Origin: Candidatus Poseidoniales archaeon
GTDB lineage: Archaea; Thermoplasmatota; Poseidoniia; Poseidoniales; Poseidoniaceae
Direction: 5' to 3'
Length of the DNA: 64,000 nt
Assembly: GCA_003602645.1 (NCBI GenBank)
Contig: QQSI01000040.1
Span: 4,152 to 68,151 of the forward strand
Shown: piece after piece, positions 5,646 through 55,559 of the stretch
Layout: every line of letters begins with the position of its first letter
Numbering within the stretch: the stretch's first letter is position 1
Made by a program: the position numbers and the translations under genes
The notes under the pieces: model-generated
The model's database searches: none
Told to the model about the DNA's origin: nothing
What the model saw: only the letters and a program-made list of their open reading frames with translations

Positions 5646-5691
5646 GGCGCTCGCTCTGCTACACCGCTTCAAGGTATATGAGGAGAGTGGC

Positions 5692-7169: not shown

Positions 7170-7194
7170 CGAGGACGTGAAGAGGGTGGCCAGC

Positions 7195-7554: not shown

Positions 7555-7568
7555 GAAGGTGCTCGAAC

Positions 7569-7724: not shown

Positions 7725-7735
7725 GGTGAAGAAGT

Positions 7736-8011
7736 ATGGTACGACCAAATGAATCCGAACTCATCGTCCCACTCCGTAAGGCCTGGGCCATCACCAGGTA
7801 CAAGCGCGCTCCTCGAGCAATGCAAATCATCCGAGAACATGTCATTCAGCACCTCAGTGTGAGGGAAGATGAAGAAGTGTGGATTGACCCCTCAGTCAAC
7901 GAACACATCTGGGCTCGTGGCATTGAAAATCCACCTCGAAAAATCAAGCTCCATGTGACACGTCACGATGAGCCTGATATTCCAATCGAAGTCAAACTAT
8001 CAACGGAGTGA
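7736..8011 (+). CDS. rpl31e: Ribosomal protein L31e (eL31)
   Basis: PLRKAW...RAPRAMQIIREHV...WARGIENPPRKIKL matches eL31. GAGGTGA lies upstream of the ATG. Confidence 0.9.
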   Translation: MVRPNESELIVPLRKAWAITRYKRAPRAMQIIREHVIQHLSVREDEEVWIDPSVNEHIWARGIENPPRKIKLHVTRHDEPDIPIEVKLSTE

Positions 8012-8017
8012 TCATTT

Positions 8018-8209
8018 ATGGGAAATATTCGACCAAGTTTTATCAAAATCCGAGCTATCCATCTTGTTGAAGATCACGGAGAAAAATTCACCGATGATTT
8101 TGACCACAACAAGAAGATGGTCCAACAACTCACTGATGTTGAGTCCAAAAAACTCCGCAACTGGATCGCTGGATACGTCACGCGATACCGACAACGCCGA
8201 GTCGACTGA
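8018..8209 (+). CDS. rps17e: Ribosomal protein S17e (eS17)
   Basis: [57 protein letters not shown] has the eS17 signature. Confidence 0.9.
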
Positions 8210-8223
8210 GCAGGTGCTTCGAC

Positions 8224-8454
8224 GTGGCTCTGCGAGTCAACTGGGACCGCACTCCTGTGTCTGTGCATCACGACAGCAAAGAAGTTCTTGAGTTGCTGAT
8301 TCTGCACCTAAGAAACAAACATGGTCTTCGCAAGCGCTCCATCGTGATGGAGGATCGTGAAGAAGGCCCTGGCCACCTGTTTTTTTTGTATCAACCGTGT
8401 GATCCACGGTGGATCGCTGAATTCGATATCACAAAATTTTCTGAGGAGGAATGA
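8224..8454 (+). CDS. Hypothetical small protein with a GTG start, coupled to the downstream methyltransferase
   Basis: A 76-aa ORF fills the gap between S17e and the SPOUT methyltransferase. Its stop overlaps the methyltransferase ATG (ATGA). It has no recognisable domain and could be a non-coding leader instead. Confidence 0.25.
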   Translation: MALRVNWDRTPVSVHHDSKEVLELLILHLRNKHGLRKRSIVMEDREEGPGHLFFLYQPCDPRWIAEFDITKFSEEE

Positions 8455-9296
8455 AGAAAATGGGTGACCGGAGCACACTTCCGTTGCCTCAATCCACCTA
8501 CGGCCTTGAAATTGTATTGATTGGCGTTTCTCATCCCGGCAACCTTGGTGCCGTTTGCCGGAGCATGTTGAATTATGGATTTGCTAACTTGAGGCTGGTC
8601 AATCCCAAATGTGAACCGGATCATATCGAGGCAAGAAACCGGGCCAAACATGCAGGGCGTATCCTCGACCAGTGCGCTGTGTACGATTCTCTTGATGCAG
8701 CAACAGAAGATGCCTCGATGATCATTGGCACGTCTGGAAAACGAGAAATTGGTTCGAAAACAAATTTTAGGCACTTCGTCTATCCATGGGAACTTTCAGA
8801 ACGCTTGGAAGGTTTTACCGGCAAAGTCTGTCTTGTATTCGGTGAAGAAGGAAAGGGGATGTCCACGGAAGACTTGGCGAAATGCGACTATCTTGTCACC
8901 CTCCCTACCTGGGAAGGCTACCCAATTGCCAACCTCTCTCACGCCGTGAATGCGTGTGTTTACGAATTACATCGGAACCGAGTAATTGCTCGACAAGGCA
9001 AGGAACAAGGGTTGCCCGACGTGGTCCCCCTTGAACGGTCGCTCAATCCTGAGTTGAAACAAATCCTTCATCAAACAGTTCGCGAATTAGCGAATGCCCT
9101 TCCCGGAAACGATGAGCGACGTCAGAGTTTTGGACAATCCCTTACGCGTTCAATCATGCGTTCTATGCCAACGCAAGGGGAGGCGACGAGAATGATTGGT
9201 GGTCTTCTTGATGCGACCACTGCAATCCAATACGTCGAGGGCAACGAGGAGTGGCGCAGCCAACGAAGGCGTAAAATCAGTCCTGAGGAAGAATGA
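8451..9296 (+). CDS. SPOUT (SpoU/TrmJ-like) RNA 2'-O-methyltransferase with a C-terminal extension
   Basis: GVSHPGNLGAVCRSMLNYGFANLRLVNP, IGTSGKRE, LVFGEEGKGMSTEDLAKCDYLVTLPT and ANLSHAVNACVYEL are TrmJ/TrmH-type SPOUT motifs. A C-terminal extension of about 100 aa follows. Confidence 0.75.
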   Translation: MKKMGDRSTLPLPQSTYGLEIVLIGVSHPGNLGAVCRSMLNYGFANLRLVNPKCEPDHIEARNRAKHAGRILDQCAVYDSLDAATEDASMIIGTSGKREIGSKTNFRHFVYPWELSERLEGFTGKVCLVFGEEGKGMSTEDLAKCDYLVTLPTWEGYPIANLSHAVNACVYELHRNRVIARQGKEQGLPDVVPLERSLNPELKQILHQTVRELANALPGNDERRQSFGQSLTRSIMRSMPTQGEATRMIGGLLDATTAIQYVEGNEEWRSQRRRKISPEEE

Positions 9297-9302
9297 GTCC
9301 AT

Positions 9303-9752
9303 TCAACCGTGCCAAGAAGCAACGCTCTTTGGCGTTTCCCGAACGTGCATGGCGACCAAACGTAACCTGTTTCCATAGGCTGATTTGATGTGTGGCTCAA
9401 CTTGCTCGAAAGCCCACTTTGCGAGATTTTCTGCAGTCGGAACAAATGGTACCACGACTGTTCTGTGATCTGAGTCCATCATTTCGAGGGCTGCACGGGC
9501 TTGTTGATCGTGCTCGTACACCACAAAGGCATGGTCCACCACATCATGGACATAAACAGTAAGAATTTCACTCACATCTGAGAAATCCATCAACATCCCC
9601 TCTTCTGAGACACCATGTTCTTGAACAACATCGCCTTCAATTTCTGCTTCAAAGCGGTAGCGATGGCCGTGCATGTGGCGGCATTTGCTCTTGTGGTTTG
9701 GCACTCGGTGGCCAGTGTCAGTCTCAATGTATCTTCGTATTCGTGTGGTCAT
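9303..9752 (-). CDS. queD: 6-carboxy-5,6,7,8-tetrahydropterin synthase QueD (PTPS family)
   Basis: The CRHMHGHRY zinc/catalytic motif and the PTPS fold pattern are present. The gene sits within the preQ0 operon. Confidence 0.85.
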   Translation of the reverse strand: MTTRIRRYIETDTGHRVPNHKSKCRHMHGHRYRFEAEIEGDVVQEHGVSEEGMLMDFSDVSEILTVYVHDVVDHAFVVYEHDQQARAALEMMDSDHRTVVVPFVPTAENLAKWAFEQVEPHIKSAYGNRLRLVAMHVRETPKSVASWHG

Positions 9753-18993: not shown

Positions 18994-19974
18994 TCACCTT
19001 CTTGTTGTCATTTTATTGACTAAATCTCGTAATTTTTGAGCTGCGTCTTCAGGAAGAATTTCTTCCATCACTTTTTGCTCTATGAACTCAATGCAATCGG
19101 ATACACCGATTCGCTCTCCCTTGGCCCAAACTTGCCCAAGGATGTTCGATCTATGCTCCTCAGGAATGTTTGGATTATCCAAAATATCCCTTGCAGCATA
19201 CTTGTACTCAAGGTACTTTTGTCGGTTCAACTTCTTTTCTTGCTTTTGTCGACCGCCACCTTTCTTGTCGTGGCGTCGGCGTTTGCGGCGTCGATCCCCA
19301 GATGGTTTTGCTACATCAGTTTGAATGGTTTTGAACACATTGATCGAACCTTGTTTTGGTTCCGATTGAGACACCGGTGATGCAACTGGTTCGATCTTCA
19401 CTTTGTCAGTTTCGATGCTCGGTTCGATGGTGGTCTCTTGAACCGGTGAAACGGCAACGGTGTCTGGCTGCACTTCGCTAGGAACGTCTGCTGGCTTCGC
19501 TTTTGCTTTGGCATTTTGCCGTGAAAGTTCCGACTTCCTCCGCAGTTCTGCGAGACGATCTTCGTGAGAAACTTGTGGCTTGGGAGCTGCTGGTTTTGCA
19601 ACCGAGGTTGTCATAGTCGGGGCGAAGGTTTCCTTTTTGGGTTCCGGCTTAGAGGTGGTTGGTTTTGAGACGCCGCCTTGCTGGCGCTTCATTCGCTCCA
19701 TCGCTTCTTTTTGCTTTTTTGCCAACTCAGTCATCCCAGAATTAGCATCGACTTGGGGGGTGGTGGATCGCGTGGGCGCAGGACGTCGTTCCACGCTTTT
19801 TCGTTCAGTTTGACGCTTGTTGCGTTGTGCGGAAGCGTTCGGGGCGAACGGGTTGAACGGCTCGTCCCGTTTTTTCCTTCCATTTCGGTCTGCGATACGA
19901 GAGGCCCCCACGCTGTTCCCGCTTGTGACCGTATAAAAACAATGAGTGTCCCATGCCGTGATTAAACTGGCCAT
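18994..19974 (-). CDS. Lys/Pro/Thr-rich low-complexity protein with a small structured C-terminal domain
   Basis: This 326-aa protein is mostly basic and predicted disordered (KKRDEPFNPF, KPTTSKPEPKK, RRRKRRRHDKKGGGRQKQEKK). A C-terminal segment of about 80 aa looks globular (YLEYKYAARDIL...ILGQVWAKGERIGVSDCIEFIEQKV). It overlaps the Kae1 stop by 13 nt and ends 4 nt upstream of the FKBP start. Confidence 0.5.
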   Translation of the reverse strand: MASLITAWDTHCFYTVTSGNSVGASRIADRNGRKKRDEPFNPFAPNASAQRNKRQTERKSVERRPAPTRSTTPQVDANSGMTELAKKQKEAMERMKRQQGGVSKPTTSKPEPKKETFAPTMTTSVAKPAAPKPQVSHEDRLAELRRKSELSRQNAKAKAKPADVPSEVQPDTVAVSPVQETTIEPSIETDKVKIEPVASPVSQSEPKQGSINVFKTIQTDVAKPSGDRRRKRRRHDKKGGGRQKQEKKLNRQKYLEYKYAARDILDNPNIPEEHRSNILGQVWAKGERIGVSDCIEFIEQKVMEEILPEDAAQKLRDLVNKMTTRR

Positions 19975-20978
19975 GTGACGGGTGTTTGGTCCGTTCGAAG
20001 GTATTGGTCGACCGCGCTTTGTGCATAGGAGGTTGTTCGTCCATGATCAAGCTCGATCTTACCAAGAAGGGCAATCATGGAACCGTTGTCAATACAGAAC
20101 ATCCTTGGTGGTGCATGAGAGGTTGCATCTCGCTCTTCAGCCATGAGTGTGCACATTTCTCTTAGTCGATTATTGCACGCAACGCCGCCTCCTAACAAAA
20201 CTTCTGACTTTCCTGTGTGTGCCAATGCTCGCTCAGCAATCTCTACACAGGCCGCAAACGAATGCTCTTGCAGTGACCAACACACAGCACCCAATTCTGC
20301 ACCGTTGTCCAACAGTCTTTGAGCGGCGGTCATAACTCCAGAAAAGGCAAGATCCATACCACGTACAGCAAAGGGTAATTCGAGTCCCTCTAAACTTGCA
20401 TTTGGGTTTTTGTCAAGCCATTCACTCGCGAGTTTTTCGATGACTGGGCCACCAGGGAATGGGATGCCTTGCCCTCGTGCAAACTTATCGAGCATGTTTC
20501 CAATGCCAATGTCTAGTGTTTCACCGAGCACTCTGTACCGACCATCGAGGTGTGCAATCACCTGAGTGTTTCCACCTGAGACATAGAGGAGAATAGGATC
20601 GCTGCACCCACATTGTTGACGTCCAATTTCGATATGAGCGACGCAGTGATTGACGCCGATGAGAGGGGTTTCTAATTTACTCGCTAGTCCACGGGCAATG
20701 GCTGCTCCTACCCTCAAACACGGGCCTAGACCTGGACCCTGTGAATAGGCGACAGCTCCGATGTCATCAGCGGCGATTCCATTGGCCTCGAACAAGCGTT
20801 GTAGCAATTCAGATGCAGCGTTTTTGTGATGGTCTGCTGCCTCACGTGGATGAATGCCACCTTCGTCTGGGCGAACGGTCGATGAACTGGATGGTGCAGG
20901 GTTTCCATCTGCATCTACCAAACCAAACGAAAGGGTGTGAGCGGTTGATTCGATCCCCAATGTCCAGAGGCCCGGCAT
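19962..20978 (-). CDS. kae1: tRNA N6-adenosine threonylcarbamoyltransferase Kae1 (TsaD/Kae1/Qri7 family), not fused to Bud32
   Basis: LGIESTAHTLSFGL, AYSQGPGLGPCLRVGA, GVNHCVAHIE and LLYVSGGNTQV are Kae1 signatures. The ATG at 20978 gives MPGLWTLGIE. Confidence 0.85.
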   Translation of the reverse strand: MPGLWTLGIESTAHTLSFGLVDADGNPAPSSSSTVRPDEGGIHPREAADHHKNAASELLQRLFEANGIAADDIGAVAYSQGPGLGPCLRVGAAIARGLASKLETPLIGVNHCVAHIEIGRQQCGCSDPILLYVSGGNTQVIAHLDGRYRVLGETLDIGIGNMLDKFARGQGIPFPGGPVIEKLASEWLDKNPNASLEGLELPFAVRGMDLAFSGVMTAAQRLLDNGAELGAVCWSLQEHSFAACVEIAERALAHTGKSEVLLGGGVACNNRLREMCTLMAEERDATSHAPPRMFCIDNGSMIALLGKIELDHGRTTSYAQSAVDQYLRTDQTPVTWPV

Positions 20979-21029
20979 GGTGGGTGGTTGAAGCCATTGT
21001 TCTTCAACCCTCAGCCTCAGCAAGGAGCA

Positions 21030-22295
21030 ATGCGGACCGTTTTGTTGGACATCGGGCCCATGGCACATCTTGGAGGAAAGGGCTCTTTGTCTGGAACCTC
21101 AGCAACTGACTATGAATTATTGACATCTCCTGCTGGAAAAGGAATTGTAGTGAATGACGGCGTTATTGAGAAAATTGAAGAATCATCCGAACTTCGTTCC
21201 GAGTATGGCTCACCACAAGAATCGACCGTTGACGTATCCATTCAATCCTTGGAGGGTTGTGCGGTTGTTCCTGGTTTAGTGGATGGACATAACCATTTGA
21301 TTTGGTCCGGTGATCGTTCGAATGAGATGACGATGAAGCAGCAGGGAATGACATATCAACAAATCGCGGCTAATGGCGGCGGCATCCAGCACACTGTGAG
21401 GGAAACCTCAGAAGCCACATACGAAGAGCTGGTTAAATCGGGTTACCAACGTATGCGCCAGGCTCTTCTTCATGGTACAACACACTTAGAAAGCAAAAGC
21501 GGATATGGCTTGTCGACAGAATCAGAGCTAAAACTCCTGAATGTTGCACATGACCTAAGCCAGATGAATCACCTCCCCACCATGGAGTTGACATGGCTTG
21601 GCGCCCATGATACACCTAAAGGTGTCAATCGCACAGACTATGTTGAGGAAATTCTAAGCGACCAACTTCCCAAAGTACTTGATCAAGGCTATGCTGATGC
21701 CGCTGATGTCTTTTGCGAGCCAGGCTGGTTCACTGTCGAGGAGAGTGAATTGATATTGTCCGCTGCCGGAAAGGGTGGTCTTCGACAACGGATTCACATT
21801 GATGAATTCGAGGATGGTGGTGGTGGAGAATTGGCAGCATCACTGGGTGTCGTTACTGCTGATCATGCCCATTACACTGCGCCTGAAACGCGGTTGAAGA
21901 TGGAATCCGCCGGCGTCAATACTGGATTTTTACCAGGAACCCCCTATACAATGGGTGCAGAATGGCCTTCATTTTCAGATGCCACTGAACAGGGGATTCG
22001 GTGGACAGTTGCAACGGACTTCAATCCAAATTGTAATATTCTCAGCATGCCGCTGATTGGATCTATGCTTGTTCACCGTAACCAAGTTGACCCACTGCTT
22101 GCATTGGTGGCCTCAACCAGAAATGCGGCAGAAACGACTCCACACCCAACGGGGATGCCACATGGGCGAATCGAGGTTGGCGCAGTCGCTAACCTCAATG
22201 TGCTCGATGGGTACCAATGGCAATCATGGTGCAATCGTCCTGGTACCACGCCTTTCAAATCCACCATGTTGAATGGTACTTTGATTCACCATTGA
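21030..22295 (+). CDS. hutI: Imidazolonepropionase HutI (amidohydrolase)
   Basis: PGLVDGHNHL, GGGIQHTVRETS, TTHLESKSGYGL, LGAHD, HIDEF, ADHAHY and TDFNP are present. The ATG at 21030 is preferred over the TTG at 20988. Confidence 0.85.
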   Translation: MRTVLLDIGPMAHLGGKGSLSGTSATDYELLTSPAGKGIVVNDGVIEKIEESSELRSEYGSPQESTVDVSIQSLEGCAVVPGLVDGHNHLIWSGDRSNEMTMKQQGMTYQQIAANGGGIQHTVRETSEATYEELVKSGYQRMRQALLHGTTHLESKSGYGLSTESELKLLNVAHDLSQMNHLPTMELTWLGAHDTPKGVNRTDYVEEILSDQLPKVLDQGYADAADVFCEPGWFTVEESELILSAAGKGGLRQRIHIDEFEDGGGGELAASLGVVTADHAHYTAPETRLKMESAGVNTGFLPGTPYTMGAEWPSFSDATEQGIRWTVATDFNPNCNILSMPLIGSMLVHRNQVDPLLALVASTRNAAETTPHPTGMPHGRIEVGAVANLNVLDGYQWQSWCNRPGTTPFKSTMLNGTLIHH

Positions 22296-22694: not shown

Positions 22695-22963
22695 TCACTC
22701 AAATCCCGCACCACATTGTGTCGCATAATGTATGTTATACGACACCGAACGAAATTTGCGATTTTTCGGGTGTTTCCGTCCTTTCCAAATCATAGAGCAG
22801 TACATCGTTTAGCCCCGTCCACGAGAAAAATATTTTCAAAAATTCTGACTTTTTGCCCATCAAGGAGGGGGTTTGAGGGTGGAATAACGTCTTTTTTGAA
22901 AAAGTCCATGCTTGACATGAAATTTTGTCGAAGCAACTAAGAAATGAATATCTCAGGAGGAAA

Positions 22964-23125
22964 TGAGTTCGATGTCTGCAGTAGAAGGATTCTGTTTGAA
23001 GTGCAAGACCTATGGTCCGATTAAGGACGGCCAACTGATCAAAATGAAAAATGGGCGTACGCGCATGGCGGGCTTCTGCTCACAACCAGGATGCAGTGGA
23101 AAAATTTCTAAGATCGTGAGCTAAC
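22964..23125 (+). CDS. Small zinc-ribbon protein (DUF5679-like)
   Basis: My own translation gives MSSMSAVEGFCLKCKTYGPIKDGQLIKMKNGRTRMAGFCSQPGCSGKISKIVS. It has a CxxC...CxxC pattern with a KMKNGR core. AGGAGG lies just upstream. It is absent from the ORF track because it is under 60 aa. Confidence 0.65.
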
Positions 23126-23182: not shown

Positions 23183-23258
23183 GGGCTCGTGGTCTAGGGG
23201 TTATGACGTCGCCTTGACATGGCGAAGATCGAGAGTTCAATTCTCTCCGAGCCCACCA
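23183..23258 (+). tRNA. tRNA-Val (anticodon GAC) with an encoded 3' CCA
   Basis: A hand-folded cloverleaf gives acceptor gggctcg/cgagccc, D-arm gtc...gac, anticodon stem tcgcc/ggcga with loop ttGACat, T-arm gagag/ctctc with loop ttcaatt, a discriminator A and a CCA end. Confidence 0.85.
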
Positions 23259-23342: not shown

Positions 23343-23714
23343 TTAATCTTCAATACGAGTCAAATCTTCCGGACTTGGTAAGACGAGATCGTCTGGGTCG
23401 ACGCGAGCAAGCGGTCGTTCTTCGATTTCTTCCATTGTGAAATCCGATGAGCCGCCATCCCAATTCACTAAATCCTCGGTTTCCTCAAATATTTCATCAG
23501 GCAGAGCCTGTTCTGTGGACAGCGAATATGCCGCAGGGTCTATTGGTTCACGACGTACAGGTTCGGCATTGGCAGGAACAAAGCGCTCTTCCATATGGAT
23601 GCCGGAGTGGAAGGTGCCACATTCAGAACATCGAACGGTGCCGCTTCTCTCAAAACAACCACAGTTAGGACAAGATGCCAAGGTAGCATACACCTTCAAT
23701 GGATCCTTGCCCAT
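23343..23714 (-). CDS. Zinc-ribbon protein with an acidic C-terminal tail
   Basis: CPNCGC...CSECG is a 4-Cys ribbon. An acidic Glu/Asp-rich tail follows. The ATG at 23714 lies 4 nt after the stop of the upstream EF-hand gene. Confidence 0.5.
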   Translation of the reverse strand: MGKDPLKVYATLASCPNCGCFERSGTVRCSECGTFHSGIHMEERFVPANAEPVRREPIDPAAYSLSTEQALPDEIFEETEDLVNWDGGSSDFTMEEIEERPLARVDPDDLVLPSPEDLTRIED

Positions 23715-23718
23715 TCCA

Positions 23719-25605
23719 TCACTCCACGAACATGTCTTCCTGGTAGCCCGTGATGATATCCCCTGTACCATCTTCCTCGATTGTCACGGTTTCGTCTTCG
23801 TCATCGAACTCTATGATTGTTCCAAAGACCTCCTCGTCCTCAAGTGTAAGACCGATGTGTGAGCCAATATCGATTTCTCCTTCCCCTTCATCATCCTCAT
23901 CTTCCTCAGGTTCATCTGACTCGTCATGAGATTCATCATCCAACTCTTCATCTTCGAAATCCTCTTCGAGAGCCTCTTCCATTTCTTCTTCGAGGTCCCC
24001 ATCATCATCATTATCTTCAGATTCGGACGAAGCATCTGCTTGATCGTCTTGGACTTCCTTCATTGCCTTAGCGCGTGCACGCCAGCTAGGCATGAGCGCT
24101 AGATGCATGTAAAGTGAACCAGCTAATCCTGCTGCGCCAAGTACCATAAACAAAATACCGTCCCAATAGAAACCAGCAGGCATCGAACTTGCTTCACCAC
24201 TTAGGGGCGTTAACGAGTTCTTACAGTCGCCTTCCTGAATTGCTGGATCACAAGGGTAAGAATCACCTTCGGCAAGACCCGCAGGAGGGAGTAAATTGCC
24301 TTTGGTCTCTAGCTCAATTGGGCCGCCAGTTCCATCGACAATGACACCGAATCCATTCACGACCCACACGGCAATGAAAAGGCCAAATGCTAAGTGAATC
24401 AACGGCCATACATATTCGTTCCATTGCTTCCCCATCATGCGCTTTTGCATATCAGTTGGGAAGGGTTTGGTTGGTTTGCTGATGACAGCTCTTTCATCCG
24501 TTGCTTCATCGGCATCTGCCAAATTTTCTAAAGCTGTGATGAATTCTATCATGTCCACCGTTCGATCGTTGTCATCATCAACTTCAGACAGGAATTCTTC
24601 GATATCCTTGTGACCGATTTCATCATCAAAGAGCTTGTTCAATTCGTTCATTAGTTCGACAACATCGACGCGCCCATTGGCATCTCTGTCAATGCTCTTG
24701 AAGAATTGAGCTGGCGAGGTTTCCATTTCATCCATGGCATCAGCGATTTTGCGAATGAGCGAAACCTCCTCGATGCTTTCTTCTTCTGAAGGATCTTCAT
24801 CGGACGCCTCATCTTCGTCCATTGATTCTTCGCCGTTTTCCTCTTCTGAATCCAATGTTTCCTCTTCGACCACCTCTTCGTGTTCTGATTCAGAATCTTC
24901 AGATTCGTCATCATCCTGGGAATCTTGGATTTCCTCTTCATCAAGGTTTGATTCTGTTTGAACTTCTTCGTCAGGTTCGCCTTCATCCTCTGTTTCAATT
25001 TCCTCTTCTGGATCATCATCCACTTGGATTTCGGGATCGGTTTCCACCTCATCGTCTGAGTCATTGTCTTCTTCGTTTTCCGAATCTTCTTCCATTGCAT
25101 CCTCATCTTCAGAGGTTGTTGAATGATCCATTTTTTCGTCTTCTGGCAAGTCATCTCCGGTGATGGTTTTATGCAACTCAGCAAGGTCAATCCTTCCATC
25201 TCCGTCAGCATCGATTGTCTCAATGAGGCGCTCAACTTGAGATGGTGGCAAATCTGCTAGATTGAGGCTCAACAGTCCTGACTTCAATTCACTTGAGTCG
25301 ATTTGACCATCGCCATCCTTGTCAAATTTATTGAACAGCATCGGAATTGTAATCCCTGTTGTTGCCAACCAATTGCGCAGCACATCAACGACGTCGTCGG
25401 CGATAAAAACTGTACCACAGTGGCTACATTTTGTGGAATCTAAAGGCACGAGGCCACCGCATGCACCGCACTCTCCGAGGGCTTCATCGGATACACCGGA
25501 AAAAGAAATATTACATTCAGGACATTTGGTTGAATCGAGGGGAATTACTGCTCTGCAAGCACCACATTCTCCTGTAGCAACTTCTTCAGTCTTGTCTTCG
25601 GACAT
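23719..25605 (-). CDS. Membrane protein with N-terminal double zinc ribbons, four EF-hand calcium-binding loops and long poly-acidic tracts
   Basis: Two CGAC..(11)..CxxC ribbons are present. Four canonical 12-residue EF loops occur in two pairs: DKDGDGQIDSSE and DADGDGRIDLAE, then DRDANGRVDVVE and DDDNDRTVDMIE. A tract of about 150 aa is almost entirely D/E. Two TM helices flank an exposed loop containing Cys. A second acidic tail follows. The ATG is at 25605. Confidence 0.7.
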   Translation of the reverse strand: MSEDKTEEVATGECGACRAVIPLDSTKCPECNISFSGVSDEALGECGACGGLVPLDSTKCSHCGTVFIADDVVDVLRNWLATTGITIPMLFNKFDKDGDGQIDSSELKSGLLSLNLADLPPSQVERLIETIDADGDGRIDLAELHKTITGDDLPEDEKMDHSTTSEDEDAMEEDSENEEDNDSDDEVETDPEIQVDDDPEEEIETEDEGEPDEEVQTESNLDEEEIQDSQDDDESEDSESEHEEVVEEETLDSEEENGEESMDEDEASDEDPSEEESIEEVSLIRKIADAMDEMETSPAQFFKSIDRDANGRVDVVELMNELNKLFDDEIGHKDIEEFLSEVDDDNDRTVDMIEFITALENLADADEATDERAVISKPTKPFPTDMQKRMMGKQWNEYVWPLIHLAFGLFIAVWVVNGFGVIVDGTGGPIELETKGNLLPPAGLAEGDSYPCDPAIQEGDCKNSLTPLSGEASSMPAGFYWDGILFMVLGAAGLAGSLYMHLALMPSWRARAKAMKEVQDDQADASSESEDNDDDGDLEEEMEEALEEDFEDEELDDESHDESDEPEEDEDDEGEGEIDIGSHIGLTLEDEEVFGTIIEFDDEDETVTIEEDGTGDIITGYQEDMFVE

Positions 25606-25676
25606 GGGCACACCTAATCCACCGACTACAACAACGGATATAATGATTCATAGTCTTTCAACGGTTACCCATACCA

Positions 25677-26567
25677 ATGGAGGGCTCAAACATGAGTGGC
25701 GTGACGATGAAAAACCTCCTACGCGGACAGGTTTACAGTTGCAATTTTGCCGATGGAACAACCATGTTTGAATGGATTGATCTCACATCCCAATCAAAGG
25801 ATGACCACCTCGTTTTTGTCTCTAGACTCCCACACAGAAGATTGCTCGACCGCATTGATGTCTCAAAGGTCGAAACATATTGGATGACGCACCGGGTGGG
25901 CCAAGCCCATATCGCCCCTGATTTGGAACAGTTACACAAACTCATGCTTTCCCGTATATCCAACCATCATGGATGTATTATTCTCGAAGGGTTAGAATGG
26001 TTAGTGACCTTGCACGGAGAAACGGTGGTGTTGAACTTCGTTCGTAGTTTGAGGGATGATTTACATCGAACTCAATGGTCGATTTTGATCCCCATCAAAC
26101 CGCTCGCCTTCAATTCAATTTGGTTGGCGCGTTTTCACCGTGAGGCGCCAGATATTTATTTGATGATAGAAGACCATGCCGAAGAAGTCATTCATAATGT
26201 GGAAGTGGACGTCGAGGAACCAAAAACAGAAGCCGCATCAACAGAGGAAGGATTACCGGTGCTGGTGATGCTGAACCGGCTTCCTAAGGTTGGGTTTACC
26301 AAGTCCATTCTACGAAAGCGAATTTTACAATGGCGGAGGATGGGGCTTGATGTCTCAGAAGTTGAACCCGCCCTCCATTTAGGCCCCGCAGCATCATACG
26401 ATTTGTATGCTGTTGTTGAAGAAAAAGTTCGTCGCGCTGTGGAACTCGAACAATTGGTCGATGCAACTCAAGAACACCTCACCGCAAGTGAACAAACCAC
26501 ATGTAAATTTAGAATCCGTCAACTCACTGGATTCGATGATATCCAAGCGATGTTAATGTCCCGGTAG
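25677..26567 (+). CDS. DUF835-like domain protein (archaeal signalling-associated domain)
   Basis: The core LMLSRISNHHGCIILEGLEWLVTLHGETVVLNFVRSLRDDL...ILIPIKPLAFN fits the DUF835 pattern as I recall it. It is divergent from the EF-hand gene, with about 70 bp between them. Confidence 0.45.
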   Translation: MEGSNMSGVTMKNLLRGQVYSCNFADGTTMFEWIDLTSQSKDDHLVFVSRLPHRRLLDRIDVSKVETYWMTHRVGQAHIAPDLEQLHKLMLSRISNHHGCIILEGLEWLVTLHGETVVLNFVRSLRDDLHRTQWSILIPIKPLAFNSIWLARFHREAPDIYLMIEDHAEEVIHNVEVDVEEPKTEAASTEEGLPVLVMLNRLPKVGFTKSILRKRILQWRRMGLDVSEVEPALHLGPAASYDLYAVVEEKVRRAVELEQLVDATQEHLTASEQTTCKFRIRQLTGFDDIQAMLMSR

Positions 26568-28118
26568 TCATCGAGGAATACGACCGTTTTCCGCTTCAAT
26601 CCGTGCTAACCATGCTCCATCTGACAATGCAGTGGCGATGTTGATGAGTTCTCTACTTGTGCTGCGATCACCAGTGAGGGGCTTTGCTAGCGTGCGCACG
26701 CGTTGCTTCAGACTTGCAACATATGTGGAAGGCTCAAGCGACTCAAATTCCAATGCTTCGCATGCAACCAACAGTTCACAGGCCAATACTTCTGAGAATC
26801 GTTGTGTGGCTTGAAGCAGGTTCCATGCGGCGGTAGCACCCATGCTGACATGGTCTTCTTGTCCAGCCGAAGTACTGGTGGAAAAGGCGGCTCGCGGACT
26901 TGCATGTCCATGGAGTTCCGCCAGGGATGCTCCGGCCACATACTGGACAATCATCAAACCAGATTCCAACCCCGAGTTCTTTGCCAAAAAAGCAGGCAAT
27001 TCACTGCGCGCTGGGTCGAGCATTTGGTCAATCCTACGTTCAGAAATTGAGCCGAGTTCAAACAAGGCAGCAGACATGGAATCTGCTGTTAATGCGATCA
27101 CCTCTCCATGAAAATTCCCTTGTGAAATGACTTCGTGCGGGCCCGGGTTCTTTGGGTCGGGGAAAATAAGGGGATTGTCGGTGGCGCTGTTCAATTCAAT
27201 CGTAATGGTTTCTAGCATGGAACTGTATTTTTGCAAGACGGCTCCATGAACTTGAGGGGCACATCGAAATGAATACGCATCTTGGACTCGTTCACAATTG
27301 GCGTGTGAGGCAAGAATTTGAGAATTCATCATGAAGGTCCGAATTCTCTTGGCAACAAGGCTTTGTCCAGGATGTGGTCTTGCATCGTGTACACGTGGGT
27401 CCGAGGGTTGAACACTTGCTTTTCTGGCCTCCATCGATGTGCAAAGGATGAGGTCTGCGAGTGGGAGCAGTGAAGAGAGTTTTCGCTCGGCAAGGGTCAT
27501 GAAGGCCAACATTTGACTTGTCCCATTGATCAATGATAATCCGTCCTTAGCACCCAATCGAACACCTATGAGTCCGTGTTCTCTGAGCACAGCCTCGGTG
27601 GGTGTTGGCGCTCCATCTTGGTCGAGAACATAGCCTTCCCCGAGCAATGCTAGCGCCATGTGAGAGAGTGGTGCTAAATCTCCACTTGCACCAAGACTTC
27701 CAATTCGCGGCACATGAGGAATGATGTCCTTATTGAGAAAATCAACGAGTTGCTCCACAACCTTTGGATGGACGCCTGAGTGGCCTTTGACAAGGGAATT
27801 TATTCGAACAGCCATCATCGCGCGAACGGCATGTTTTGGCATTGGTTCACCGAGGCCAGTGGCGTGTGAACGAACTAAATTGGTTTGCAATTGGGCCAAA
27901 TCATCGGGAGAGATTCGTTCATGAACCAAGGCACCAAATCCTGTATTGATGCCGTAAACCGTTTCCCCACGGCTCAATATTCCATCCACAACAGAGCGAG
28001 CAGCGTGTACATTTTGCCATGCATCTTCTGAAACAGCTACATCGGCATGGTTTGATGCGATCCGCTCAACTTCAGCGGGAGTAAGGGTTGTGCCATCAAA
28101 GTGAATTGTGTTTCTCAT
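26568..28118 (-). CDS. hutH: Histidine ammonia-lyase HutH
   Basis: GSLGASGDLAPLSHMAL contains the MIO-forming Ala-Ser-Gly triad. The aromatic ammonia-lyase fold is evident throughout. Confidence 0.9.
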   Translation of the reverse strand: MRNTIHFDGTTLTPAEVERIASNHADVAVSEDAWQNVHAARSVVDGILSRGETVYGINTGFGALVHERISPDDLAQLQTNLVRSHATGLGEPMPKHAVRAMMAVRINSLVKGHSGVHPKVVEQLVDFLNKDIIPHVPRIGSLGASGDLAPLSHMALALLGEGYVLDQDGAPTPTEAVLREHGLIGVRLGAKDGLSLINGTSQMLAFMTLAERKLSSLLPLADLILCTSMEARKASVQPSDPRVHDARPHPGQSLVAKRIRTFMMNSQILASHANCERVQDAYSFRCAPQVHGAVLQKYSSMLETITIELNSATDNPLIFPDPKNPGPHEVISQGNFHGEVIALTADSMSAALFELGSISERRIDQMLDPARSELPAFLAKNSGLESGLMIVQYVAGASLAELHGHASPRAAFSTSTSAGQEDHVSMGATAAWNLLQATQRFSEVLACELLVACEALEFESLEPSTYVASLKQRVRTLAKPLTGDRSTSRELINIATALSDGAWLARIEAENGRIPR

Positions 28119-30208
28119 GGTTCATCACCGTCTGGAAAAAGAGAATCGAGGAGTTGAGAATCTGTCGAGTGCGGAAGTGTGATGTTGAGCCTTTTCTCAG
28201 CCTTCATTGCCCTTTTTATGGCGAATTTTGCGCCATCATTACGAGCCCAAGCCCTTCTTGCCACACCATTGTTGACGTCCCAATGAAGCATTGATTGAAG
28301 CTTTTCCTCACACTCATTGCTTCCATCAAGTAACATACCAAACCCACCGTTCATTACTTGGCCCCAACCTACACCTCCTCCATTGTGAAGACTGACCCAA
28401 GTTGCGCCTCGGAAAGCATCACCGACAAAATTCTGAACAGCCATGTCTGCGGTCCACATGGATCCGTCTCGGATGTTTGCAGTTTCTCGATAAGGACTGT
28501 CCGTTCCTGAAACATCATGATGGTCGCGACCTAACACAACGGGGCCAGAAAGTTCGCCGTTTCGAATGGCTTGATTCATCGCAGAAGCGATTTTCCTCCG
28601 GCCTTCATCATCTGCATAGAGAATGCGTGCTTGGGAACCAACCACCATTTGATTTTGGCCTGCCTCCTTAATCCACCGAATGTTGTCCCTCATTTGTTGT
28701 GTGATTTCTGAAGGTGATGTATCCATCATGGATTCAAGCACTTCCATTGCAATCTGATCCGTCTTTTTCAGATCATCTGGATCGCCCGAACAACACACCC
28801 ATCGATAAGGACCAAACCCATAATCGAAACACATTGGTCCCATGATATCTTCAACGTAACTTGGATACCTAAAACTTCCATCACTGTTGAGCACGTCAGC
28901 CCCAGCTCTACTAGCTTCAAGCAAGAAGGCATTCCCATAATCCCAGAAATACATGCCTTGTTCTGACATGTGATTGATAGCATCGGCGTGTCGCACAAGG
29001 GTTTCACGGACTTTATTCTTGAACAATTCAGGATTGTTAGAAAGCATTTCAGCGGCTTCGGCGTAAGGCATTCCTACGGGGAAATATCCTCCTTGGAATG
29101 GATTGTGAAGGCTTGTTTGATCTGATCCAAGGTCAACTCGAACATTTCTTTCTACCAGTCGTTCCCAAAGTGCGACGATGTTGCCAACGTAGCCAATGGA
29201 TATTGCTTGACGGTTGGCAGCGCATTCAACCATCCGATCTATGGCAACATCGATGTCCTCGGTGACCTCGGTTAACCAGCCCTGATGGTGACGCTTGTAT
29301 GCTGCATGTGCGTTGGATTCCGCCACAATACACGACGCACCGGCAATGACCGCTGCCTTTGCTTGTGCACCTGACATGCCTCCGAGACCTGATGTGACGA
29401 AGGTAACACCTTCCAGACCCGACTCGCCAGATAGACCCAAATGCGCTCTTGCAGCGTTAAGGAGTGTGATGGTCGTACCATGGACAATACCTTGTGGGCC
29501 AATGTACATGTAAGACCCTGCCGTCATCTGACCATATTGTGTGACGCCGAGTGCGTTGAGGCGTTCGTAATTCTCAGGTGTCGACTCACTAGGAATCATC
29601 ATTCCATTGGTGACAATCACTCGCGGTGCATTGATATTGGAAGGAAAAAGCCCCATTGGATGGCCAGAATACATCACCAGCGTTTGATCATCGTTCATGA
29701 TTGAAAGGTACTGCATGGTCAACCTGTATTGAGCCCAATTTTGGAACACCGAACCGTTCCCACCATAGGTGATGAGTTCATGTGGGAATTGAGCAACTGC
29801 AGGGTCCAAATTATTCTGAATCATGAGCATGATTGATGCGGCATGAATCGATTTCGCGGGGTAGGCATCGATTGGATGGGCTTTCATTTCGTATTCAGTG
29901 GGACGGAACCTCCACATGATAATACGCCCAAATGTGTTCAATTCATCTGCAAACTCAGGTCCAAGAATAGCGTGGTGTTTTTCATCGAAGTAACGCAACG
30001 CATTTTCCAGTGCTAATTTTTTTTCTTGACGGGAAAGAACTTGACGTCTTTTAGGGGCCATATCGACGTTTGGATCAATGCCCGGGTGAGCAGGGAGGGT
30101 GTCGGGGATTCCCTCTGCTATATGCGCTCTTAACCCACTCACATCAGCGCCCATGTTTGGTTCAAACCACGCCTTGTCCTTGAGCGTTCGTATTGGGCTT
30201 TTTCGCAT
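28115..30208 (-). CDS. hutU: Urocanate hydratase HutU, long eukaryote-like form
   Basis: ITYGGNGSVFQNWAQY, GQMTAGSYMYIGPQGIVHGT, TSGLGGMSGAQ (NAD site), SDQTSLHNP and RDHHDVSGTDSPYRET are urocanase motifs. At about 697 aa it carries an N-terminal extension of about 100 aa, as in eukaryotic UROC1. The ATG is at 30208. Confidence 0.9.
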   Translation of the reverse strand: MRKSPIRTLKDKAWFEPNMGADVSGLRAHIAEGIPDTLPAHPGIDPNVDMAPKRRQVLSRQEKKLALENALRYFDEKHHAILGPEFADELNTFGRIIMWRFRPTEYEMKAHPIDAYPAKSIHAASIMLMIQNNLDPAVAQFPHELITYGGNGSVFQNWAQYRLTMQYLSIMNDDQTLVMYSGHPMGLFPSNINAPRVIVTNGMMIPSESTPENYERLNALGVTQYGQMTAGSYMYIGPQGIVHGTTITLLNAARAHLGLSGESGLEGVTFVTSGLGGMSGAQAKAAVIAGASCIVAESNAHAAYKRHHQGWLTEVTEDIDVAIDRMVECAANRQAISIGYVGNIVALWERLVERNVRVDLGSDQTSLHNPFQGGYFPVGMPYAEAAEMLSNNPELFKNKVRETLVRHADAINHMSEQGMYFWDYGNAFLLEASRAGADVLNSDGSFRYPSYVEDIMGPMCFDYGFGPYRWVCCSGDPDDLKKTDQIAMEVLESMMDTSPSEITQQMRDNIRWIKEAGQNQMVVGSQARILYADDEGRRKIASAMNQAIRNGELSGPVVLGRDHHDVSGTDSPYRETANIRDGSMWTADMAVQNFVGDAFRGATWVSLHNGGGVGWGQVMNGGFGMLLDGSNECEEKLQSMLHWDVNNGVARRAWARNDGAKFAIKRAMKAEKRLNITLPHSTDSQLLDSLFPDGDEP

Positions 30209-30212
30209 CAAA

Positions 30213-31454
30213 TCATGCGCTGCGTGGGTTTGGTCGCCACAAAGAGAAGAATGCCCCTGAGATCATCATCATCACGGAGAAGATCAAAAATCCATTTTTG
30301 AGTGTAAAATATTGTTCCTCCAACAGATAACCCGCTGTGGCACTGGATAACGAGAACGCTAATGACATCAAGAGCATGTCCATCGAAAACACTCGGCCGC
30401 GTACTTCATCCTCAACCCATTTCTGAGTCAGAATGGTTGACAACACCCAATTTGCTCCGGAAGCTGCATGAGCGAGCATCACAAGTGAGATCGTCAAGAA
30501 AAGACTCACGCCAAGCGTCCATCCGACGAGAAAATAGAACGCACCAGAAAGCATCACCAACAAACCGACCATAACAGGCCAGCGCTCTTCATTGGTGAGC
30601 AAGGCTCTTGCTGCAATTGGCCCAATTCCTGTGCCTACTCCGCGGGCGAAGAAAAAGATACCAAACCCTAGAGCCATACCAAAGCCGTCAATGTCTGAAC
30701 CTGCCACAACAAGGAATACGCCGGCCAAACCTCCACCTGCTATGTTCCATGAAGATTTTGCGAAGACGATGCGCAGAAGTCTTTTTTCACCGATAATACG
30801 TTTCCAACCTTTCTTGATGTTGGTAAAAGCAGTGGCCAGTAGTGGTCCTTTCATTTCATTTCCAATGGTCTGGGGGATGCTCAGATTTCTAAGCAGATAT
30901 GCCCCAAAGGCGAATGTGACTGCATCGATGATGAAGGCTGCATCTGTGCCCCAAATTTCGACCACAATGCCTCCAAGCATTGCACCTAAGCAGAGGGCTG
31001 TTGACCAACTCGCCGCATCTAATGCATTGGCTGTAGCGAGATGTTCAGCAGGAACAATGTTAGGCAATGCTGCCCGTTCTGCCGTCACATACATCCCATG
31101 CATAATCATCATCGCTCCAGTGAGAACGTAGATCCAAACAATGTGATTTTTTCCATCGATGAGCAGGAAACTTAACGCTAAGCCAACCTGGAGAATGTTT
31201 GTCCAAACCATAATCGTTTTTCGATTTAAGCGATCGGCCAAAAGACCACCAAATGGTTGGAATGCAGCAAAACACAGCATCCTCATCGTGAACAGAAGGC
31301 CGAGGAGAAATTCAGATTCGGTGTATTCGAAAATCAGAAGGAAAAGGGCAATCGTGTTGAACCACTCCCCTAGCATAGAGATGACTGAAGCAGACCATAA
31401 GCGCCTGAATGCGTGGTTGGTCCTGATCAACTCCAGGTAACCGATTTGAGTCAT
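30213..31454 (-). CDS. MFS transporter
   Basis: Twelve predicted TM helices are present, with an N-terminal LGEWFNTIALFLLIF motif and D/R-K motifs between TM2 and TM3. It resembles EntS/YbdA-like exporters. Confidence 0.75.
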   Translation of the reverse strand: MTQIGYLELIRTNHAFRRLWSASVISMLGEWFNTIALFLLIFEYTESEFLLGLLFTMRMLCFAAFQPFGGLLADRLNRKTIMVWTNILQVGLALSFLLIDGKNHIVWIYVLTGAMMIMHGMYVTAERAALPNIVPAEHLATANALDAASWSTALCLGAMLGGIVVEIWGTDAAFIIDAVTFAFGAYLLRNLSIPQTIGNEMKGPLLATAFTNIKKGWKRIIGEKRLLRIVFAKSSWNIAGGGLAGVFLVVAGSDIDGFGMALGFGIFFFARGVGTGIGPIAARALLTNEERWPVMVGLLVMLSGAFYFLVGWTLGVSLFLTISLVMLAHAASGANWVLSTILTQKWVEDEVRGRVFSMDMLLMSLAFSLSSATAGYLLEEQYFTLKNGFLIFSVMMMISGAFFSLWRPNPRSA

Positions 31455-55506: not shown

Positions 55507-55559
55507 GAAATTCACCAAAGAAGGGAGGACCCTACATTAGGGGGTTCTATATTGGACTT

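Follow-up and report, generated by a model that had tools for sequence, protein, structure and literature searches.

A gene pair conserved across Poseidoniales encodes a membrane-anchored multi-EF-hand protein, tentatively a Ca2+-responsive scaffold or sensor, and a small zinc-ribbon protein

EF-hand sensors are thought to be mainly eukaryotic, with bacterial roots (PMC7016017), and a two-gene locus of a Candidatus Poseidoniales archaeon raises the question of what an elaborate EF-hand protein would do in an archaeal cell. The locus lies in a 64-kb stretch of DNA, called the window below. The original prediction, drawn from the bare letters, had proposed a dedicated Ca2+ buffering or sensing module. 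The sequence features that it had listed were all recovered in their places; it had missed an extracytoplasmic loop (exo-loop) with the motif MPAGFYWDG, a Tudor/SH3-like barrel, linear motifs in the small protein and a DUF835 neighbour. The features of the locus are the following.

23343..23714 (-): gene for a 123-aa acidic zinc-ribbon protein (ATG at 23714, stop at 23343)
23719..25605 (-), stop codon included: large gene, 628-aa membrane-anchored multi-EF-hand protein (ORF and Pfam EF-hand matches)
23722..23877 (-): C-terminal Tudor/SH3-like five-stranded beta-barrel, residues 577-628 (very acidic, no K/R)
23878..24087 (-): basic juxtamembrane helix and poly-acidic linker 2, residues 507-576 (composition, AF2)
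24088..24414 (-): TM1, predicted 57-aa extracytoplasmic loop and TM2, residues 398-506 (hydropathy, K/R distribution)
24520..24750 (-): EF-hand pair 2, residues 286-362 (PS00018; loops 306-317 and 343-354)
24751..25161 (-): poly-acidic disordered linker 1, residues 149-285 (composition, pLDDT about 30)
25162..25395 (-): amphipathic helix and EF-hand pair 1, residues 71-148 (PS00018, Pfam EF-hand_7)
25396..25605 (-): double zinc ribbon, residues 1-70 (8 invariant Cys, n=37 orthologues)
25638..25651 (-): conserved ATGAATCATTATAT element with TATA-like TTATAT, a putative promoter (alignment of upstream regions)
25677..26567 (+): divergent DUF835 (inactivated KaiC-type) gene (Pfam DUF835, 40.1 bits against a cutoff of 33.1)

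The large ORF had been given as 630 aa. The ORF itself stood and its length did not: reading from the ATG at 25605 yields 628 aa, and the 630-aa version corresponds to an upstream GTG which sits within a conserved Shine-Dalgarno-like motif, AGGTGTG; orthologues begin at the ATG. A database protein (P0001) is 100% identical to the 628-aa product. Annotation is sparse, the large protein being labelled just "EF-hand domain-containing protein", as is another member of the family (P0117, MBT6844606.1, "EF-hand domain-containing protein [Euryarchaeota archaeon]"), and the small one "hypothetical protein" only. NCBIfam has no specific family for either, the only match being a weak one to XopAW EF-hand (28.9 bits against a cutoff of 120). 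In the literature, one sentence of Meheust et al. 2022 (PMC9258230) mentions MGIIa- and MGIIb-specific modules with calcium-binding domains; the architecture, topology, Tudor-like barrel and exo-loop module of the EF-hand family, as well as its coupled zinc-ribbon gene and synteny, are described nowhere in the literature searched.

Whether the EF-hands are genuine was addressed with profile searches. A canonical loop was taken to span 12 residues, of which numbers 1, 3, 5 and 12 supply oxygen ligands (D-x-[DNS]-x-[DENSTG]...[DE]), number 6 is Gly and number 8 is hydrophobic. The four loops that had been proposed, starting at residues 95, 132, 306 and 343, all match PROSITE PS00018, and they are the only matches to this pattern in the six frames of the window. 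The first pair, with loops 95-106 and 132-143, is preceded by a conserved amphipathic helix (residues 70-83) and is covered by a Pfam EF-hand_7 match at residues 90-146. Profile scores far exceed their cutoffs, contrary to one way in which the original prediction might have failed: 59.7 bits for EF-hand_1 (PF00036; cutoff 25.4, 4 stretches), 56.5 for EF-hand_7 (PF13499; cutoff 30), 46.5 for EF-hand_6 (cutoff 25) and 46.5 for EF-hand_5 (cutoff 25.9). In all 37 orthologues used for conservation counts of loops and cysteines, every loop has D at position 1 and E at position 12, with D, N or S at positions 3 and 5. AF2 models each lobe as helix, short strand, helix, twice over, with pLDDT of 78-88 (78-88 in the region of lobe 1, 82-88 in lobe 2). 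Foldseek retrieves calmodulin, troponin C and centrin at probability 1.00, with both lobes placed on calmodulin and troponin C, and phmmer aligns lobe 1 with the calmodulin N-lobe at E of about 1e-12. We conclude that the 628-aa protein is a true EF-hand protein kept under selection, and it is predicted to bind Ca2+.

The two CxxC...CxxC zinc ribbons were likewise present, ribbon 1 formed by C14/C17...C28/C31 and ribbon 2 by C46/C49...C60/C63, and all eight cysteines are kept in the 37 orthologues. The Pfam DZR profile (PF12773) gives 19.8 bits for the 628-aa protein, below its cutoff of 27.3, and 29.0 bits for the orthologue P0164. AF2 predicts beta hairpins in this region, with pLDDT of 58-72. 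An apparent ribbon-less variant, P0173, proved to be a gene call cut short; the full protein, of 782 aa, has the zinc ribbons. The JGI annotation compares the ribbons to RPABC4/Spt4-type zinc ribbons.

Could the gene be a lineage-specific low-complexity artefact, or an ORF that is not expressed? Low-complexity D/E sequence does make up ~30% of the protein. The family nevertheless spans at least 50 Poseidoniales genomes at species level and hundreds of database clusters. Purifying selection on its folded domains is strong: compared with the nearest species, dN/dS is 0.004 for the EF lobe 1 region (residues 71-148; synonymous sites are close to saturation), 0.011 for the double zinc ribbon and 0.06 for EF-hand pair 2. 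A range of 0.004-0.06 for the folded parts means that the gene is no low-complexity artefact. Conservation is as high in the zinc ribbons, the exo-loop, the juxtamembrane helix and the Tudor-like barrel as it is in the EF-hands, and lobe 1 is near-invariant among orthologues even on its surface and in the linker between its helices. Together with the invariant Cys and Ca2+ ligands and the conserved promoter-like and Shine-Dalgarno-like elements upstream, this leaves the artefact reading effectively refuted. A scan for promoters and terminators of bacterial type was uninformative, with 4 sites where 3.9 were expected and no terminators; the TATA-like element emerged instead from the alignment of upstream regions.

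The small gene lies, as predicted, 4 nt downstream, its ATG starting 4 nt past the TGA of the large gene, with a GGAG 7 nt upstream of this ATG, within the last codons of the large gene. Its product, of pI 4.2, carries one zinc ribbon (C15-H36, positions 23607-23672) and the conserved motifs CPxCGC..RCxxCGxFH, ERxxP, DPxxYS[LIM], EExFE and WxGGS[TS]DF. The comparison of genomes that the original prediction had called for revealed a pair conserved and syntenic across Poseidoniales: in about 35 loci the small gene is directly downstream of the large one, with a gap of 1, 4 or 5 nt or with an overlap, and in one locus (L053) the two are kept together though their downstream neighbours differ. The large and small genes behave as one conserved unit.

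The membrane part of the protein is a hairpin of two TM helices (about 398-423 and 481-506) around a loop with two cysteines, C452 and C461, as had been predicted. K/R residues number 4.0 over the 15 aa that precede TM1 and 4.1 over the 15 aa that follow TM2, against 1.4 over the whole 57-aa loop. Because of this distribution (positive-inside rule) and because the protein lacks a signal peptide, everything but the 57-aa loop is predicted to be cytoplasmic. The question of which side the EF-hands face thus receives a predicted answer, N-in and C-in, with EF-hands towards the cytoplasm. Of the 10 Cys of the protein, the 8 in the ribbons are predicted to lie in the cytoplasm; the other 2 lie in the loop, which is probably stapled by a disulfide. 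At the boundary of loop and TM2 stands the invariant MPAGFYWDG; dN/dS of the hairpin is 0.018. TM2 is followed by the juxtamembrane helix SWRARAKAMKE, and AF2 extends it into one long helix, 478-530.

Several of these traits would suit an EF-hand-regulated membrane pore or transport regulator, in which the hairpin oligomerises, and the loop and polar TM residues line or gate an ion path. H404, N417, D482 and H501 are invariant polar residues in or beside the TM helices, TM2 bears a small-xxx-small motif (GAAGLAG), MPAGFYWDG stands where the loop meets TM2, and the 50-residue helix that continues TM2 could form a bundle. The hairpin, moreover, occurs twice in each of two unrelated basic proteins, P0191 and P0213, and on this distribution we regard it as a separate evolutionary module. 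Yet searching Pfam with the isolated hairpin at E<=10 returned no channel or transporter, just "Sensor" at 18.9 bits, below its cutoff of 28.2. Compared with P-loop and two-TM ion channels, no channel profile (e.g. Ion_trans_2) was matched, and the loop, which AF2 leaves disordered (pLDDT 34-43), has no predicted helix; the likeness to P-loop or CorA-type motifs is one made by eye. We therefore hold a pore to be very unlikely. As to the P0191/P0236 family with two hairpin copies, the neighbours on its sole contig (L051, 7.5 kb) are all unannotated and PHROGs gave no match there, so that it offers no functional clue.

The acidic tracts bear on a different reading, that of a local buffer or sink, functionally akin to calsequestrin or calbindin, which is what the original prediction meant by buffering. 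Held just under the membrane, 2-7 EF-hands and about 110 carboxylates would absorb Ca2+, or divalent cations, leaking into the cell from seawater with 10 mM Ca2+ until the P-type pump exports them. Tract 1 had been described as some 150 aa of nearly all Asp and Glu. The acidic stretch is there and "nearly all" is overstated, since it comprises 137 aa with 55% D+E (75 D+E), 2 K/R and a net charge of -73. The second stretch, announced after the TM helices, was found at residues 521-576 (64% D+E, 36 D+E). The protein is a clear outlier in this regard, with a maximal D+E fraction per 50 aa of 0.70 compared to at most 0.40 in the 54 other crude ORFs of the window, and such a composition is compatible with the high-capacity, low-affinity Ca2+ binding of calsequestrin. 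The composition persists among orthologues as the sequence changes, PS00018-type loops range from 2 to 7 per protein and reach 6-7 in several genera, and the same genome encodes a Ca2+-ATPase.

Other observations fit a buffer poorly. Tract 1 has no secondary structure in the AF2 model and a dN/dS of 0.32 (0.105 for tract 2); among orthologues it spans 98-252 aa with a D+E fraction of 0.29-0.68, some lineages have additional EF-hand pairs or else (EEEEA)n repeats inserted in it, and the lineage of P0177 retains a single EF pair. Judged by these comparisons, the tracts are variable spacers, of which the acidic composition is kept, and neither sequence nor length. The proposed resemblance to calsequestrin did not extend beyond composition, that is, long tracts with 55-64% D+E. 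Calsequestrin consists of three thioredoxin-like domains (PF01216) and resides inside a store, whereas the 628-aa protein has no such domain and no Calsequestrin Pfam match at E<=1. Membership in that family was rejected on this ground, and also because the tract is disordered, poorly conserved and predicted to be cytoplasmic. Cytoplasmic Mg2+ and K+ would moreover compete at low-affinity carboxylates. Finally, a buffer could do without the invariant zinc ribbons, the conserved exo-loop, the Tudor-like barrel and the coupled partner gene, and EF lobe 1 is near-invariant on its surface.

The original prediction had combined the EF-hand gene with a SERCA-like pump of the same window, and a P-type Ca2+-ATPase, closest to LMCA1/SPCA/SERCA, is indeed encoded at 52585-55518. 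It stands 27 kb away, with about 25 unrelated genes in between (MetRS, menaquinone synthesis, WD40 and molybdopterin oxidoreductase genes among them), and its presence is thus no evidence for a dedicated Ca2+ module. No operon link joins the two genes. Overall, we consider simple buffering unlikely.

The C-terminal residues 577-628 correspond to the Tudor/SH3-like superfold, i. e. an antiparallel barrel that is strongly bent, has five strands and covers about 50-60 aa, here with a net charge of -19. Such a barrel, which would prefer basic ligands, suggests a reading in which Ca2+ is secondary and the protein tethers nucleic-acid machinery or basic proteins to the membrane. Components of transcription, translation or chromatin would be docked by the zinc ribbons and the KOW/Tudor-like barrel, a role to which the JGI comparison of the ribbons would also lend itself; the acidic tracts would mimic nucleic acid or act as chaperones of basic proteins, and the EF-hands would be structural. 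Structural EF-hands, however, often lose their Ca2+-ligand positions, and these are strictly conserved in all four loops. No nucleic-acid-binding family scores above the Pfam threshold, and the barrel has F600, Y621 and F626 as its only conserved aromatics, with no four-residue aromatic cage evident by sequence. A tether of this kind appears highly improbable to us. Taken in isolation, the barrel had no Pfam match above threshold. A copy of it is carried by P0195, a protein of 1361 aa suspected to be viral, for which an IMG/VR scan gave no relative, Pfam no match and PHROGs a weak match to a NinI-like phosphatase.

As the best explanation of the pair we tentatively favour a scaffold or sensor that is specific to Poseidoniales, anchored in the membrane, turned towards the cytoplasm and responsive to Ca2+, rather than a plain buffer. 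The conserved modules that do not deal with Ca2+ (exo-loop, barrel, motifs of the small protein, DUF835 neighbour) argue for partner binding or signalling over simple buffering, and the pair probably couples calcium to signalling or scaffolding. The two-helix hairpin would insert the protein with both ends in the cytoplasm and the 57-aa loop alone outside. On the cytoplasmic side would come, in order, the double zinc ribbon, a calmodulin-type EF lobe, and the variable acidic spacer with further EF lobes; beyond the membrane segment, the second acidic spacer and then the Tudor-like barrel. Ca2+ bound to the EF lobes may shift their conformation, and this may change the partners held at the membrane by zinc ribbons, lobe 1 and barrel. 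The prime candidate partner would be the co-translated small protein, with its disordered acidic tail and four conserved short linear motifs. The poly-acidic tracts would be mainly flexible, charge-repelling tethers, which could also weakly bind divalent cations near the membrane. It should be said that an EF-loop number of 2-7 and extreme acidity would fit a capacity or buffer role too.

The DUF835 protein is a candidate functional partner, and might be a downstream component of the scaffold or sensor. PMC5847659 assigns DUF835 to iKaiC, which serves as an output domain in the response regulators of archaea; against PDB sequences the protein had no match at E<=1. Its gene is upstream and divergent in all loci that reach that far. 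The 71-bp divergent intergenic region contains the ATGAATCATTATAT element, ~35 nt from the ATGs at 25605 and 25677, and nearly all orthologous upstream regions have this element, even in genera where the protein is only ~40% identical. Because the whole neighbourhood is syntenic across the order (MFS-hutU-hutH, DUF835, EF-hand gene, zinc-ribbon gene, DUF5679, ABM, hutI, kae1), adjacency to DUF835 is weak evidence for a functional tie. A bolder proposal would have Marine Group II (MGII) archaea run an intracellular Ca2+ second-messenger pathway around a membrane-anchored receptor resembling a split calmodulin. Its exo-loop would respond to a cue from outside, or else gate or regulate the entry of ions, and its EF lobes would recruit or release the zinc-ribbon adaptor and signal through the DUF835 protein as a hub. 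We think this distinctly unlikely.

A Ca2+-responsive scaffold or sensor has partial parallels among known proteins. As in calmodulin, troponin C and centrin, there are two lobes, each with paired canonical 12-residue EF-hand loops. Calmodulin is a soluble protein of about 150 aa with a central helix, whereas the archaeal protein has 628 aa, two TM helices, zinc ribbons, a Tudor-like barrel and a 137-aa poly-acidic disordered tract between its lobes; membership in the calmodulin family was rejected for the TM helices and the split lobes. Eukaryotic STIM has a single TM helix, an EF-SAM part towards the store lumen and a CAD/SOAR region. By analogy, it too is a membrane protein coupling EF-hand Ca2+ sensing to interaction modules; the archaeal protein differs by its two-TM hairpin, its predicted cytoplasmic EF-hands and termini, and its lack of SAM or CAD/SOAR. 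EfhP (PA4107) of Pseudomonas aeruginosa, likened here by the EF-hand motif, is a prokaryotic, cell-envelope-associated EF-hand protein that binds Ca2+ with a Kd of 13.7 uM and exposes a hydrophobic surface in a Ca2+-dependent manner (PMC9132961), the behaviour that we propose for the archaeal protein. It has two EF-hands, is predicted to be periplasmic and senses external Ca2+, whereas the archaeal EF-hands are predicted to be cytoplasmic, with many extra modules.

Calcium signalling in archaea is almost unexplored, and here is an order-wide, strongly selected calmodulin-like protein, predicted to face the cytoplasm, in an archaeal group that ranks among the most abundant of the surface ocean, where external Ca2+ is about 10 mM. 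The analysis defines two new conserved modules, the YPCD...C...MPxGxYxD exo-loop hairpin and the acidic Tudor-like barrel, both also found in other uncharacterised proteins. Soluble parts that can be expressed (EF lobe 1 with the zinc ribbons, EF lobe 2, the Tudor-like barrel, the small partner protein) let one ask whether cytosolic Ca2+ is a signal in archaea. If the second-messenger proposal were true, this would be calmodulin-style archaeal Ca2+ signalling made from unrelated accessory parts.

The EF-hand gene is an ORF of the minus strand that starts with the ATG at 25605 and encodes 628 aa. The length of 630 aa originally assigned to it needs an upstream GTG; this GTG is part of a conserved Shine-Dalgarno-like motif (AGGTGTG), and the ATG is the start in orthologues. 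The locus and the segments of the protein are as follows.

Features around the EF-hand gene
19962-21068 (-), kae1/tsaD
20988-22295 (+), hutI
22963-23124 (+), 53-aa Cys-rich DUF5679 protein
23183-23258 (+), tRNA-Val(GAC)
23343-23714 (-), small zinc-ribbon protein
23719-25605 (-), EF-hand protein
25606-25676, 71-bp divergent intergenic region
25677-26567 (+), DUF835 protein
26568-30211 (-) and 30213-31454 (-), hut genes of the MFS-hutU-hutH side

Segments of the EF-hand protein (residues), with dN/dS per segment against the nearest species (L001), for which synonymous sites are close to saturation, and pLDDT in an AlphaFold2 model built with a 28-sequence alignment
Zinc ribbons (Cys 14/17/28/31 and 46/49/60/63): dN/dS 0.011; pLDDT of the hairpins 58-72
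EF pair 1 (71-148): dN/dS 0.004; pLDDT of both EF lobes 78-88
Acidic tract 1 (149-285): dN/dS 0.32
EF pair 2 (286-362): dN/dS 0.06
Membrane hairpin (398-506): dN/dS 0.018; pLDDT of the two TM helices 68-79, the second running on as a single helix 478-530
Acidic tract 2 (521-576): dN/dS 0.105
C-terminal Tudor/SH3-like barrel (577-628): pLDDT 82-89
Disordered in the model: 160-278, 420-480, 550-577

The protein holds exactly ten Cys, eight in the two CxxC...CxxC ribbons and two (C452 and C461) in the loop between the hydrophobic segments, originally noted as Cys-containing. The four EF-hand loops quoted there all match PROSITE PS00018, and are the only matches across the six frames of the 64-kb window. 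Pfam EF-hand_1 scored 59.7 bits over four stretches (cutoff 25.4) and EF-hand_7 56.5 bits (cutoff 30), and therefore the concern that EF-hand profiles might fall below threshold does not hold. Foldseek against the PDB matched calmodulin, troponin C and centrin over both EF lobes, and phmmer aligned EF lobe 1 with the calmodulin N-lobe (E about 1e-12). The protein belongs to the EF-hand superfamily but falls outside the calmodulin, calsequestrin and STIM families.

The acidic tracts are genuine outliers, the maximal D+E content per 50-aa window being 0.70, against at most 0.40 in the other 54 crude ORFs (median whole-protein D+E 0.13). The description of the first as nearly all Asp and Glu was nevertheless overstated: its 137 aa are 55% D+E, with two K/R and a net charge of -73. 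The second, the acidic tail that follows the membrane segments, reaches 64%.

On which side of the membrane do the EF-hands lie? No signal peptide was found in the EF-hand protein. Among orthologues, the 15 residues preceding TM1 and the 15 following TM2 carry on average 4.0 and 4.1 K/R, against 1.4 K/R and 10.3 D/E in the 57-residue loop. Applied to this distribution, the positive-inside rule predicts a cytoplasmic N- and C-terminus. The part inside the cell would then comprise the zinc ribbons, every EF-hand, the two acidic tracts and the barrel, with only the two-Cys loop outside. The likeness to calsequestrin, a luminal store protein, was consequently dropped. The protein would almost certainly bind Ca2+ at the cytoplasmic face of the membrane.

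An alignment of 37 orthologues was used to assess conservation. All eight ribbon Cys, C461 and an MPAGFYWDG motif are invariant, C452 is conserved at more than 90%, and conservation is high in EF lobe 1 and the final 52 residues. Each of the four EF loops has D at position 1 and E at position 12 in 37/37, with D, N or S at positions 3 and 5. Given these invariant Cys and Ca2+-ligand positions, and the low dN/dS of the folded segments, the gene being a low-complexity artefact was rejected.

The double ribbon, EF lobe 1, hairpin and barrel are constant among orthologues; the stretch from EF lobe 1 to the membrane is variable. PS00018 matches range from 2 to 7 per protein: the MGIIb-type P0177 has one EF pair only, and a 782-aa relative (locus L053, 6815-9163) has three, with a perfect (EEEEA)n repeat as linker. 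P0173 in the database represents this latter gene type, cut short at the N-terminus by the gene call. The segment aligned to tract 1 varies from 98 to 252 aa and from 0.29 to 0.68 in D+E, and therefore the acidic tracts behave as disordered, composition-constrained spacers rather than as a conserved binding domain.

These observations bear on function. Serving as a local Ca2+ buffer, perhaps as a secondary effect, would suit the extreme acidity of the protein and the expandable number of its EF-hands. A mere buffer, however, hardly explains the near-invariance of EF lobe 1 or the strong conservation of modules unconnected with chelation, namely the zinc ribbons, the exo-loop, the juxtamembrane helix, the barrel, and a coupled partner with linear motifs; we consider this role rather doubtful. 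The same features fit a Ca2+-responsive scaffold or sensor, the reading that we tentatively prefer. A pore or its regulator could account for the conserved polar residues of the TM helices (H404, N417, D482, H501), the GAAGLAG motif and the invariant loop/TM2 junction, but no channel profile was matched, and we hold it to be improbable. Less probable still is a minor alternative in which the protein would tether basic proteins or nucleic-acid machinery.

The coupled partner is the small protein (123 aa, pI 4.2, CPxCGC...RCxxCG ribbon). As originally noted, its gene lies 4 nt downstream, the ATG at 23714 being 4 nt past the TGA of the EF-hand gene; a GGAG is found 7 nt 5′ of this ATG, within the final codons of the EF-hand gene. 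The pair is kept together in relatives, with a gap of 1, 4 or 5 nt in about 35 loci, and in L053 the stop of the EF-hand gene overlaps the start of the small gene (6815-9163 and 9160-9477). The order MFS-hutU-hutH, divergent DUF835, EF-hand gene, small gene was found in every locus long enough, and DUF5679, an ABM-like gene, hutI (TIGR01224, 300 bits, cutoff 298) and kae1 come next in most lineages. Such order-wide synteny weakens guilt by association for the neighbours. In L053, the downstream genes differ (AlaX-like, photolyase-like), yet the pair and the upstream DUF835 gene are still together, so that the EF-hand and small genes are a unit.

DUF835 is counted among inactivated KaiC domains and serves archaeal response regulators as an output domain (PMC5847659). 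The intergenic region dividing its gene from the EF-hand gene holds a single near-palindromic conserved element, ATGAATCATTATAT, at 25638-25651. This element, and a GGTG motif just 5′ of the start codon, are common to genera down to about 40% protein identity, and may be read as a putative archaeal TATA-type promoter and ribosome-binding site. The single TATA-like element lies about 35 nt from both starts (25677 and 25605), which suggests a bidirectional promoter shared by the two genes; ATGAATCATTATAT may represent such a promoter (TATA/BRE) or else the binding site of a regulator.

Past its ribbon, the small protein has an acidic tail with no overall conservation, in which four short motifs are kept: ERxxP, DPxxYS[LIM], EExFE[EQ][ST] and WxGGS[TS]DF. 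Such a pattern is usual for a disordered adaptor docking on folded domains. The small protein may dock on the big one, the barrel and the EF lobes being the obvious candidate sites. A near-copy of the acidic Tudor-like barrel is embedded at residues about 940-993 (IGIGSHIGLTIDDEEYFGVIIGFDDEDDLVTIKEDGSGDELTGYQDEMFLE) of P0195, an otherwise unrelated protein of 1361 aa, making the barrel a putative mobile docking module. C-terminal to it, P0195 shows a motif of calcineurin-like phosphoesterases (GDFHAD...GNHE), and it weakly matches a NinI-like phosphatase among the PHROGs. The TM-loop-TM module (G..YPCD...Q...C......P.G.Y.D) is present as two tandem copies in P0191, P0213 and P0236, basic proteins without EF-hands that form a small family and measure about 610-640 aa; the sole contig recovered for this family (L051, gene at 156-1988) has only unannotated neighbours.

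The EF-hand cluster divides the hut genes, MFS-hutU-hutH being on one side and hutI on the other, an arrangement conserved in Poseidoniales. As mechanically listed, the ORFs of kae1/tsaD and hutI share 81 nt at their 5′ ends; the true starts are probably more internal, with a short intergenic region between the two divergent genes. The DUF5679 protein, up to 96% identical between genera, is far more conserved than its neighbours, and its gene adjoins the tRNA-Val gene; both lie shortly downstream of the pair and are encoded on the other strand. Of two other unusual genes of the window, the one at 48166-50514 (+) encodes a 782-aa WD40 beta-propeller protein, and the one at 2085-5717 (-) a 1210-aa, probably surface, protein with CARDB, NPCBM-associated and Ig-like domains.

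A SERCA-like Ca2+ pump in the window had been taken to suggest a dedicated Ca2+ module. The call itself is reasonable: the P2-type ATPase encoded by ORF 52585-55518 has Listeria LMCA1, SPCA and SERCA as its closest matches (E about 1e-158 to 1e-136), the nearest NCBIfam models being PMR1/SERCA, with scores under equivalog cutoffs. The pump is 27 kb from the EF-hand gene with unrelated genes between, so it lends no support to such a module.

With each GTDB species represented by one genome, 50 loci with relatives of the EF-hand protein were found; their labels are Poseidoniaceae, Poseidoniales or MGII "Euryarchaeota", and MGIIb is represented at least once (L048). The sole exception, a Yoonia sp. 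MAG contig (L049, CAXRJJ010000038.1), is probably archaeal and was placed in this bacterial MAG by mis-binning, because it carries the whole Poseidoniales order, hutU-hutH-DUF835-EF-ZnR-DUF5679-ABM-hutI-kae1. Searching 5.8 billion proteins yielded more than 1,600 matches at E<=0.001, some of which may reflect no more than composition or an EF-hand motif; the top 120 matches are full-length relatives, 590-640 aa long. With the hairpin and C-terminus as query, just 87 matches were obtained by exhaustive HMMER among 1.84 billion cluster representatives, and this part is therefore restricted to a narrow group. Source names are limited to "EF-hand domain-containing protein" and a COG-style composite, and the small protein is named "hypothetical protein".

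Our literature search found no description of this architecture; Meheust et al. 2022 devote one sentence to calcium-binding domains in protein modules specific to Poseidoniales (PMC9258230). By analogy, the nearest functional counterparts would be sensors of the calmodulin type and EfhP, an EF-hand sensor of bacteria, the latter being predicted periplasmic, with two EF-hands and a Ca2+ Kd of 13.7 uM (PMC9132961). The EF-hand protein is an order-wide, calmodulin-like membrane protein, predicted to face the cytoplasm, in a globally abundant archaeal group, and with its expressible domains archaeal Ca2+ signalling becomes testable.
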